DNA from: a virus
Taxonomy: Duplodnaviria > Heunggongvirae > Uroviricota > Caudoviricetes
Length of the DNA stretch: 31,645 nt
IMG/VR virus record: IMGVR_UViG_3300045988_013781
Reading direction: 5' to 3' (one strand)
This document shows positions 15,001 to 18,000 of the stretch, in pieces (positions within the stretch are counted from its first letter, which is position 1; the number at the start of each line of letters is the position of its first letter). Position numbers: made by a program.

Positions 15001-18000
15001 ATTGCGTTGCCCCTCATTAAATGCCATTGCCATAGCGTCCATCGGTGAGATAGCGGAAAACACACGGCCTTTCTCCAGCACCGACCAGACAACGCGACGC
15101 CCCTGTTCACTGCTCATGACAAAGCGAATGTCATCAATTTCACGCTGCGCCATGTCACGTTGCTTACGGGCGTTTTCTTCTTTCAGTTGATCGTCTTCGT
15201 AATCTGTCATTGTGATTGCCCACCCTGACCACTAACTGCATTCGCCATAGCTGACAAAACACTCGGATCCGAAGTTTTAGCTTCGCTTAGCGTCTTGGCA
15301 CCCTGTGCCGCCGCCATCCCCATCGCCATCATTTGTTGCTGCTGTTGCTGCTGTGCCCGTTGCTGGCGAGCATGCTCAACCTGTTCCTGCGGAACAATGA
15401 CGGTTGGAGACACTCCGGACATATCAGCGAATGCATCGATCGCCTGATCAACGTTGAGTTTGTCGAGAGCTTCTGGTTTCGCTTGCGCAAGTTGACCAAT
15501 GAAGTTAACCGTGGACGCCAGACTGGACAGGCCGATAGACTTCTGCGCCTGAGCCATGACGGAAATGTATTCGACCTTCAGGGGCATGCCTTCCATCGCG
15601 TCAGGCGGTGGCGGCAGCATGTTTTTACGCACCATCATCGAGAAAGCGCGGTCAATGAGAGGATTAAGACATTCGTCGTTCAGACGCTCCAGAACCGGCC
15701 CCAACATCAGAAGTTTTTCTTCTTTCATTTCGATCACCGCTTCAACAGGCATCGAGCGGGTATTGATGTTCTGCAACATCATGAACAGATCGACAAAGTA
15801 GGCGCTGTTAATGATTTGACGAGTGTCCTGAATGTCTGCCACCAAATCTGCTGTACTGGGGTTAACCAGATAAGCAGGCCTGAAGCCATCCTGACCAGTA
15901 ATCTGATCGATATACGTGATGTCGCCAGGAAGAAGGGAGGCGCGCTGATTCTTGAGGGAAGTCGGAGCAACCATCGGCGGATTGGTGGCTTTATCAATCA
16001 ACTGCGACTTGCGCTTCTGGAGAAGCTGCAATGCCTTAACAGGTCCAAGCGCCAGCATACCAGGGCATGATGATCCATAAACATCTTCGCCGTTAACTTC
16101 CCAGCGCGGAGCCATAATTGGAAACTCATCGAATCCGGACTCACGCAACAACTTGTCGTTATCGCCACCAACCTCGTAATAAACCGATTTGAATGGCTTG
16201 TTCTTGCTATCCAGCTTCGATGTATCGCGGTCAATGTTCGGGTAAACCGAATGCATCACTTCAATCCACTTCTCGTAGGTGCCGCTTTCCCACATGCTTT
16301 TTACGGATTCGCTGACGTTATTTAGCCCGAACTCCCGAACAAGCTGACGAACAGTCATAGAGAACTTGCGAAAACAGGTGTCCACACTGCCACGAGGTGA
16401 GTTAGCCAGGTAGTAACTGCCTATCGGGAATGGCATTGTGCGAATGATGTCCTCGTCATCCTCCAGCACCGCCATTGCACCAGTGCTGTATGTGCCGAGG
16501 CTTCCGTATAACTGCGGAAGAGACTGGTAGAGATTCGACTTATTGAACATATCGTTCATGCGGTTCTGCACCGCCTCAAGCCACAACTTAACAGGGCCAT
16601 AATCCATCATTTCAGGATCTGGCGTAGCCAGGCGAAACCACGGACGCGCGGGGCTTGTGATGCCTGACATCATGCCGCTGGCGAGAGTGCGCGCCGCCAT
16701 AGTCCCGGTCGAATCAATAATGCGTGTATTCCGTCGATCGTTACGGTTGACCTCAGAAGTCAGAAAGCGGGAACCACGCGGGTTGATGTAATCACTCAAC
16801 TCGCGCCAGTGCGGCTCGAACGACTGACGCTCGCTTTCAAGTTGTGCGAACTGTTTGTTCAATCGCTCTTTAGTTGTTTCCGCCATTTCAATGACTCCGG
16901 TTACTGACCAAGCAGCGTTTTACCGCTGGTATTAGCGGTTGATGTGTCGCCCTGAGAACCGGTAAGCAGCGTAGAACTACGACCAGCAGCAGCGCGACGG
17001 CGACGAGTTTCTTCGTCGCGGGCATCAACAACGGCGGCATCCTGCTCCTGTGGTGCTGCCTGAACTTCTGGTGTTGCAGGCACTGATGGTGAGCTACCCA
17101 TGCACATATCAATGACTCCGTACGCAATTAAATTATTACCAATTTAACCACATGTGATTTATTTATCGTAGATACTTGACATTTAACGCACTAATTATTA
17201 CCTTTCAGGTAAGCAAAGAGTTCATTCCGGTTATTAACCTGACTGGCTTGTCGTTAAATTGAACAGGTGGGGTGAGCTTTTATTTTGAGCAGTACGGTGT
17301 ATGGCACATGCGCCGATAGCGGTCTGGATACGTTTAAGGGGCACCCTCCCTTGCTCGGGCAAACGAACCAGGTAGCCGGAATGTGCAAGTCGAGCGGTTT
17401 TATTCCGCGCACGGGGATTCACCATCCCGGCGATTCGGTGTGACACCTCGGAAGAGACGAGGGTGCAACGATGAGAGCATTTATGGAGCCGCGACAAAGT
17501 GTGGTGCCTTAACAGGCTAAGTGCTCTCAGCGTTGTGGCATTAGCTCAGTTGGACAGAGCAACCGCCTTCTAAGCGGTTGGTCGCAGGTTCGAATCCTGC
17601 ATGCCGCGCCAGAATCACGCCTAAGGACCGTGATGCCAGAAGTTCCAGGGGCTTGGCGGTGATGGTTTCCCTTGAAGGACTATCACCGCCATTTTTACAG
17701 CAGGACGCCATTGCGATGACTTCATGCTGTAAACCCGTACAGCCACGGAAGGCATAACTCATTGCTTCCAGTTCGCCCGGTTCGCCGGGCATTTTTTTGC
17801 CTGATGACCACAAATTACCTTAAAGGTATAATCATGAAAAACTTTAAGGTAATTAGTATGTTCGAATCGTTCAAAGAGCTGTTTTTATCTACTGCCAATA
17901 CTGCCGTGCATCGAGCTAAAAACCCTGTGCTAGGTGCTTTTGTTATGTCCTGGTGCGCCTTCAACTGGAAATCACTTCTTTATCTATTTTTTAGCAAATC

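Follow-up and report, generated by a model that had tools for sequence, protein, structure and literature searches.

A conserved, structured non-coding RNA of lambdoid, P1 and epsilon15-like phages with a possible role in early transcription

The DNA analysed here (the window) is the whole 31,645-nt stretch of IMG/VR record IMGVR_UViG_3300045988_013781, an epsilon15/phiV10-like (Uetakevirus) prophage of E. coli. Between its portal and large terminase genes lies a plus-strand cassette composed of a leader, a tRNA-Arg(UCU) gene and one open reading frame (ORF); over the stretch searched (17100-17830), identity to phiV10, TL-2011b and the O157 typing phages 9 and 10 reaches 98%. The subject of this work is the leader. 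An earlier reading, made from this DNA alone (the sequence-only reading), had singled out a hairpin-dense, non-coding span at 17230-17534, directly 5' of the tRNA on the plus strand, as a possible structured RNA. The location is correct, and comparative evidence (pairing and compensatory changes) supports the suggestion, while the limits had to be redrawn: the whole leader covers about 17213-17535 and contains a much better defined core (Table 1). This core is a conserved, plus-strand, non-coding structured RNA, and it recurs across three groups of temperate phages that are unrelated to one another: lambdoid/Stx phages, P1 and epsilon15-like phages.

To define the fold, loci were gathered with an invariant 19-mer of the core (120 from IMG/VR and 24 from GTDB genomes), and 39 core sequences less than 90% identical to one another were aligned (alignment A2), folded with RNAalifold plus inspection and used for a covariance model of the core (R1). 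A first six-way alignment presented invariant blocks between stems with obvious compensatory changes. Within A2, 98.3% of the cells assigned to pairs do pair, compared with 26-47% when the partners are slid by one to three columns, and compensatory changes occur at 12 pairs (80 cells); none of 500 shuffles reached the observed values. Clear compensatory changes among relatives are thus the outcome of the comparative alignment that the sequence-only reading had proposed as a check. G-U pairs are abundant, with U-G at columns 8:18 in 38 of the 39 sequences and at 31:91 in all of them, indicating that the fold belongs to the plus strand only.

Compensatory changes are found throughout the nested helices. 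In P1, the sequences divide into 20 with A-U and 19 with G-C at columns 7:19, while P2 alternates between C-G (30) and U-A (9) at 33:89 and between G-C (37) and A-U (2) at 34:88. P4 shows such changes at three of its four pairs, the most variable being 144:152 (A-U in 24, U-G in 10, C-G in 4 and U-A in 1), and P5 at four of five, with the forms CCUCG/CGAGG, CCUGG/CCAGG, GCCGG/CCGGC and CCCGG/CCGGG. The two pseudoknots have a different status. PK1 remains a proposal because both of its strands are almost invariant, leaving no covariation with which to test the pairing. For PK2, the mEp460 lineage changes CACC/GGUG to AACC/GGUU (pair 147:167 is C-G in 36 sequences and A-U in three), probably a single compensatory event.

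The 19-mer is unchanged in homologues retrieved by BLAST at 70-83% overall identity. When an independent anchor (GGCACATG..AGCGGTC) was used instead, the 19-mer was still exact in 146 of 152 hits, so its invariance is no artefact of the search; five hits carry one-base variants and one (L288) is truncated before it. In that last locus (6970 onward), P2 is followed by the sequence that lies 3' of the tRNA in the window, a natural deletion having removed the remainder of the core and the tRNA.

The non-coding status of the region also holds, although one of the arguments first offered for it does not. The sequence-only reading counted no plus-strand ORF longer than about 24 codons, whereas GTG and TTG starts give ORFs of 52 amino acids (17285-17443) and 45 amino acids (17383-17520). 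On the minus strand it took the ORFs to look spurious, and this is correct for both of them (17234-17497, 87 amino acids; 17254-17412, 52 amino acids). Each of the four ORFs across the core is lost through frameshifting length changes or stops in 26 to 38 of the 38 diverged homologues, and we therefore regard all four as spurious.

Of the four hairpins named at the outset, CCUCG-GAAGAGA-CGAGG is P5, conserved and covarying; the other three are not conserved helices. UUGC-ucgg-GCAA sits in a variable insert of one subgroup, while CGGAAU...AUUCCG and GGUG-uga-CACC use bases that the comparative model assigns to the pseudoknots. Folding of the single sequence gave a minimum free energy z-score of -1.76, and 8 of 200 shuffles folded equally well, so that hairpins alone are not beyond chance. 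A scan with Rfam 15, also proposed earlier, found no family on the element, either in the window (at gathering and E <= 10 thresholds) or in seven divergent loci (at gathering thresholds), and no description of this RNA emerged from the literature, searched both by topic and by sequence string. The module is undescribed, and membership of any catalogued family could not be shown.

Table 1. Features of the element and its cassette in the window (positions on the 31,645-nt stretch)
Feature	Position	Strand	Remarks
Portal gene	15207-16886	minus	one flank of the cassette
Leader promoter/operator	17178-17212	+	-35 TTGACA 17178-17183, 17-nt spacer, -10 TACCTT 17201-17206
Palindrome TTACCTTTCAGGTAA	17198-17212	+	overlaps the -10 of the leader promoter
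Leader 5' part	17213-17292	+	conserved GGCUUGUCGUUAAAU; degenerate copy of 'module H' (CAAC-helix-GUUGUG hairpin), ending GGGGUGAGCUUUUAUUUUGAGCAG
Core RNA	17293-17466 (174 nt)	+	R1 139.8 bits, E 3e-44; P1, P2, P4, P5 and two proposed pseudoknots
P1 hairpin	17295-17300 with 17310-17315	+	loop AUGGCACAU; helix cells 98.7% paired
PK1, proposed pseudoknot	17304-17309 with 17381-17386	+	GCACAU with AUGUGC; picked by RNAalifold; 100% paired
P2	17319-17320 and 17323-17326 with 17369-17372 and 17375-17376	+	surrounds variable insert 17327-17368
Near-invariant 19-mer GGUAGCCGGAAUGUGCAAG	17371-17389	+
P4 hairpin	17414-17417 with 17425-17428	+	loop UUCACCA
PK2, proposed pseudoknot	17420-17423 with 17437-17440	+	P4-loop CACC with GGUG; cells 98.7% paired
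P5 hairpin	17446-17450 with 17458-17462	+	conserved loop GAAGAGA
P6 / module H	17466-17482 with 17519-17535	+	CAACGAUGAGAGCAUUU with AAGUGCUCUCAGCGUUG; variable insert 17483-17518
tRNA-Arg(UCU)	17535-17611	+	ARAGORN; Rfam tRNA 69.4 bits
Intrinsic-terminator-like hairpins with U tracts	17654-17691; 17775-17790	+	-23.6 and -11.2 kcal/mol; between tRNA and next gene
Second promoter-like site	17804-17832	+	overlaps operator-like palindrome 17815-17829
Cargo ORF	17834-18682	+	phrog_4780, function unknown; co-oriented with leader
Large terminase gene	18686-20155	minus	other flank of the cassette

The core is followed in the window by a further helix, P6 (module H), which brings the structured part to about 245 nt. 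Its 3' strand and the conserved GUGG behind it run into the tRNA: GUGG forms the first four tRNA bases, and the last base of P6 is tRNA base 1. Since the joined strands came out ungapped and mis-registered in MAFFT, P6 was assessed by duplex energies and partner swapping. Cognate strands reach a mean of -15.7 kcal/mol compared with -10.7 for swapped partners, and none of 10,000 permutations did as well. P6 is a plain helix without a U tract. In three loci (L097, L101, L010) its variable insert contains T-arm-like hairpins (GGUUCGAUUCC or GGUUCAAUUCC), which may be tRNA remnants or T-loop modules.

Sequences homologous to the element are widespread. By BLAST, 17294-17538 recurs at about 83% identity just past the cI gene of lambdoid phages (cdtI, mEp460, 2H10, Stx2c and Stx2a phages), and 17294-17456 at about 80% in phage P1/P7 and P1-like plasmids; phages of Klebsiella, Salmonella and Enterobacter carry copies with 70-86% identity, as does a single phage deposited as a Stenotrophomonas phage. 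The matched site bears no annotation in almost all of these records and a hypothetical-protein call in a few. Among 5,426 complete E. coli genomes, 1,836 carry the core, each in 1-4 copies; 554 of its places are on plasmids, and the 12 places sampled were all unannotated. R1 reported a single copy in the window and in each of the complete phage genomes searched (mEp460 and L156), and one in the 5.2-kb locus of the P1 ban operon. P1 and the Stx-converting phages are among the best-studied phages, and still the element went almost entirely unannotated.

The genomic homes of the core differ among the 152 loci. In the commonest (74 loci), a co-directional S24/HTH cI-type repressor gene ends about 155 nt before the core; 34 loci are of the epsilon15 type, with the portal gene upstream on the opposite strand, and about 20 are of the P1 type, where the core lies 14 nt past tRNA-Ile2 and before ban. 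A tRNA-Arg follows immediately in 27 loci, a tRNA-Ile2 lies 5' of the core in 18, and 105 have no tRNA nearby. The sequence-only reading had also offered that the region might be a long processed tRNA leader or a relic of the locus from which the tRNA was captured. The first is physically true in the window, where tRNA-Arg(UCU) is the co-transcribed 3' neighbour of the leader, and does not extend to the tRNA-less majority; the second fails, the core being a self-standing and strongly conserved module without a tRNA in most of its homes.

Around the core, the upstream orientation is mixed, while the dominant downstream ORF is co-oriented with the core in 109 of 126 assessable loci. What stands directly 3' varies by locus (a tRNA, a ribosome-binding site 25 nt away, ban, xis-int or a canonical boxA), and so does the downstream cargo: yfdP-like genes, Tad2-like/DUF2829, Phage_gp49_66, ban or xis-int. 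Tad2-like/DUF2829 (Thoeris anti-defence 2) or Phage_gp49_66 genes also occupy the position of phrog_4780 in relatives (L040, L005, L018), which makes the cassette look like a slot for anti-defence genes or morons. The mEp460 arrangement runs from the cI stop codon and the cI terminator through two OL operators TTGC-N7-GCAA (also present at OR), a pL-like -35/-10 pair, the element and a long-loop terminator (3386-3431 of its record, L001) to a yfdP-like first early-left gene. The CPS-53 prophage of E. coli K-12 (L157) keeps the yfdPQRST operon, which in mEp460 stands behind the element, but R1 detects the element nowhere in that region, so K-12 data cannot help here. Upstream of K-12 yfdP, L157 carries GATTTTGA/CGGGTCA-type repeats at 9247-9605.

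In the window the leader appears to be placed under repressor control. The layout TTGAC(A/C)-17-TACCTT is conserved in related loci; the promoter at 17178-17206 is predicted to be active, and transcription would start at about 17213. Its -10 is overlapped by a palindrome of the form TTACC-N5-GGTAA, found 12 times in the window (at 160, 17198, 17815, 20748, 20766, 23543, 23605, 25507, 25844, 25892, 26604 and 26666) against 0.5 expected. Pairs of this palindrome bracket an HTH_3 regulator gene at 25962-26546, and the set probably constitutes the operators of the prophage regulator. The overlap of the promoter with a recurrent palindrome that flanks a regulator gene argues that the element heads an early, repressor-controlled transcript. 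Between promoter and core, relatives from Klebsiella and Salmonella have an intact CAAC-helix-GUUGUG module (CAACAUGAAAGCGCAC...GGAGUGCGCUUCCAGGUGUG). The window copy (17219-17292) is degenerate and its structure weak; the assignment as a 5' module H comes from those relatives.

Previously published data bear on the transcription of the element. A 193-nt RNA of E. coli K1 RS218, 'sRNA-17', was mapped by RACE, with a Northern blot; it is encoded in an mEp460-like prophage (PMC7719688, Front Microbiol 2020). All primers of that study map exactly on mEp460, where the element covers 2990-3243 and sRNA-17 covers 3237-3430, that is, 194 nt past P6 and up to the terminator. We considered that the element might be sRNA-17 itself and rejected this, as the primer mapping puts sRNA-17 3' of the element. 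The gel-shift fragment described as the promoter of sRNA-17 is 2988-3237, and hence the element was read as an ArcA-regulated promoter and not recognised as a structured RNA (PMC7719688); this published 'promoter' receives a different reading here. The qRT-PCR amplicon of the same work (2988-3383) starts inside the element and extends into sRNA-17, showing that both are transcribed together. In addition, the mapped 5' end of sRNA-17 (3237) lies no more than 2 nt from the equivalent of the tRNA junction, at the foot of P6, which suggests a processing site there.

Taken together, these observations lead to a proposal to which we assign a probability of roughly 40%: the leader would act in cis, modifying the RNA polymerase engaged in its synthesis, as the put RNAs of HK022 and HK639 or the nut sites of lambda do. 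The proposal is based on the position of the core, its modularity, its single copy, its co-orientation with downstream genes, the lack of an N-type gene among the first downstream ORFs, the occasional boxA and the put-like motifs described below. Mechanistically, a repressor-controlled early promoter would produce a transcript with 17213-17535 as its 5' leader; the core would fold during transcription into a compact RNA with the two proposed pseudoknots, and the folded core would make the elongating polymerase resist pausing and termination, possibly with the involvement of Nus factors. The core would then add a third route past early terminators to those of lambda N/nut and the HK022 put RNA. 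That RNase P cuts at the 5' end of tRNAs is established biology, and in the window prophage such a cut would subsequently free the leader. Diverse 3' neighbours behind the same core are what is expected of a polymerase-directed element that is independent of downstream content, and terminators do lie downstream of the core both in the window and in mEp460.

The comparison with put supports the analogy in several respects. Both elements occupy one niche, immediately 3' of pL and at the same distance from homologous cI genes, and the HK639 record annotates a 'putL-like antiterminator RNA' at the putL slot. Both are promoter-proximal, non-coding and built with crossing helices; the element stands after cI at the head of operons with terminators, under an operator-bearing promoter in the window, and, as in HK639, there is a single pL copy. 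At the motif level, CAUGCGUCG closes P1 exactly as put stem I is closed (put C26-G34) and holds the equivalent of the essential put U28, while GGCG...CAA lies at the position of put G42-G45 and A63/A64; the critical positions, such as U28, are marked by the mutational data on put (PMC9378689). Moreover, put is active even when cut from its transcript (PMC9378689), so that a tRNA-processing cut would not prevent the element from acting on polymerase. The differences are nevertheless substantial. With a core of 174 nt and about 245 nt including P6, the element far exceeds the roughly 70 nt of put; its P1-P5 and two proposed pseudoknots contrast with the two stems and triplex of put; it does not match the put consensus (stem I CGGCG/CGUCG, stem II GGCG..GCAAU); and it extends beyond lambdoids into P1 and epsilon15-like phages. 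By function, put is an antiterminator that gives terminator readthrough without phage proteins and is blocked by rpoC zinc-binding-domain mutations; the element is a putative one.

The two were also compared through covariance models. A put model (R2), built from an alignment of 19 put homologues (A3), scores 93 bits on HK022 putL, 88 bits on HK639 putL and 33 bits on the diverged HK022 putR, on which it was not trained. Membership of the element in the put family was considered and rejected, the models failing in both directions. Rfam returned no match on the HK022 put region either.

The likeness to nut and rrn signals is more scattered. The element has the same position as lambda nutL, and a perfect rrn-type boxA (UGCUCUUUAACAA, also present in the rrnH leader) stands directly 3' of the core in L086, with close variants in L030 and L283. 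Compared with the nut boxA forms CGCUCUUA and UGCUCUUUAACAA, the remaining loci offer only a paired UGCUCUY. GU-rich segments of the element (GUUGUGG and GGUGUG) resemble boxC, for which UGUGUGGG in rrnH and GGUGUGUG in nutL may be compared. In other loci the 3' strand of P6 reads AGUGCUCUCAGCGUUGUGG, boxA-like and then boxC-like, and TGCTCT reaches 2.57 per kb near the element against 0.28 elsewhere, in loci that are related to each other. No GNRA-type hairpin that could serve as boxB was found in the conserved part of the element. Among the first downstream ORFs, searches against Pfam and PHROGs gave no N-type antiterminator family; N proteins are diverse, and the absence is unproven.

Both put and the element sometimes precede boxA or boxC-like sequences. 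From position 1222 of L254 onward, put stem I runs straight into a perfect boxA (GCUCUUUAACAAUCUGGA), the same cassette as found after the element core, and many put sites precede a boxC-like UUUGGGGUGUGG, which suggests that put leaders may also engage Nus factors.

Several results weigh against an action of the element on polymerase. R2 gave no put match on the window or on 24 other loci with the element, R1 recognises no put site, and any kinship of the two is undetectable; put G35 and A9, both essential, have no conserved equivalent in the element. The boxA likeness of P6 falls on a 3' strand that is base-paired and covarying, and L155 has lost this likeness with the pairing intact; we therefore downgraded the reading as boxA to weak evidence. 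The enrichment of terminators downstream of the core is modest (0.64 per kb against 0.36 elsewhere, 1.8-fold, in a scan that misses long-loop terminators). In P1 the core lies in mid-operon, 2.3 kb from Pban. In the window, two terminators follow the tRNA and the ORF behind them has its own operator-bearing promoter-like site, so that element and tRNA may form a self-contained unit. Finally, yfdP, just downstream of the element, is almost silent in the RS218 lysogen, with read counts too low to judge, and the cat cassette inserted in the sRNA-17 deletion mutant confounds the rise of yfdP expression seen there (PMC7719688).

Polymerase binding and antitermination by the core are what we infer from analogy with put and nut. 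Somewhat less probable than an action in cis as such is the broader proposal that the core represents a previously undescribed structural class of antiterminator RNA, self-sufficient, polymerase-modifying and several times the size of put, which would provide a third strategy of early-operon antitermination in lambdoid/Stx phages, P1-like phage-plasmids and epsilon15-like phages while standing unannotated in about one third of sequenced E. coli genomes. To our knowledge, processive antitermination by RNA alone is known from essentially one small family, put. If the proposal is true, the element would be a second, larger class, not demonstrably related to put, indicating that RNA reprograms RNA polymerase in diverse ways, and it would explain the expression of early-left genes in many lambdoid and Stx phages in which no N gene is found. 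If antitermination is wrong, there is still a large RNA with two proposed pseudoknots heading early operons with anti-defence cargo in a great number of E. coli genomes.

A different function is suggested by the tRNA junction. The element could be a stable, processed RNA of about 190-320 nt, freed by tRNA-processing or other RNases, that acts in trans by binding a host or phage factor, as a decoy, sponge or anti-defence RNA at the start of infection. A tRNA abuts one end of the element in 45 of the 152 loci, where the tRNA-processing enzymes would define that end; the 5' end of sRNA-17 falls at the same place; the window unit closes with strong terminators; the near-invariant 19-mer suggests a macromolecular partner; and Tad2-like anti-defence genes are among the neighbouring cargo. 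There are also precedents for such neighbourhoods: GOLLD and ROOL are large, ornate, phage-borne RNAs of unknown function that often lie beside tRNA genes. They measure about 600-800 nt, come from other bacterial phyla and have no tie to early promoters, and neither family, both being in Rfam, matched the element in our Rfam scans. We consider a role in trans unlikely, though worth keeping in mind, given that most loci have no terminator right behind the core, that a gene starts 25-100 nt downstream in several of them, that the core is consistently near a promoter and co-oriented with the genes that follow, and that no discrete core-sized RNA has been reported.

The architecture of the element also resembles that of a riboswitch-like sensor, in which the core, as a large aptamer, would bind a metabolite or signal, with the variable 3' modules serving as expression platforms for early or cargo genes. 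The conserved core with its proposed pseudoknots and invariant unpaired nucleotides, the heterogeneous 3' modules, the position 5' of co-oriented genes and a size within the range of large aptamers are all compatible with it. However, we found no recurring alternative, mutually exclusive pairing of the core with a terminator or ribosome-binding site: P6 lacks the U tract of a terminator, and the next terminator is 100-250 nt off, in the window beyond a tRNA. The downstream genes share no common function and no Rfam riboswitch matched, which makes this possibility considerably more doubtful than a trans-acting RNA.

That the conserved entity is instead a DNA element, either a promoter/operator with an ArcA site, as was assumed for sRNA-17, or a single-stranded DNA structure, appears very improbable. 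The 5' RACE end at the element's 3' edge would agree with a promoter there, but the compensatory changes and many G-U pairs fit a folded plus strand and not duplex DNA, no sigma-70-like promoter was found inside, the TAAGTG match is not kept in other lineages, and the qRT-PCR amplicon discussed above shows the element transcribed. An ordinary long tRNA leader or decaying relic without a function of its own, as the T-arm-like hairpins in some P6 inserts and the window tRNA might suggest, is close to refuted by the loci that lack a tRNA, by the covarying core kept in three unrelated phage lineages and by its frequency in E. coli.

A few further features of these genomes were recorded. Next to the portal gene of the window, a 68-amino-acid Ala/Arg-rich ORF (16901-17107, minus strand) is kept in Klebsiella relatives (e.g. 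L027) and has no Pfam match. At 47-123 on the minus strand the window encodes a homologue of the Hfq-binding RNA isrK (Rfam RF01394, 56.8 bits); the TTACC-N5-GGTAA palindrome at 160-174 lies just upstream of it, and the same regulator that would control the leader promoter may act there. In mEp460, an isrK RNA (818-894, minus strand, 67 bits) and a C4 antisense RNA (706-793, minus strand, RF01695, 83.6 bits) both lie within the annotated Rha antirepressor gene and share its strand.

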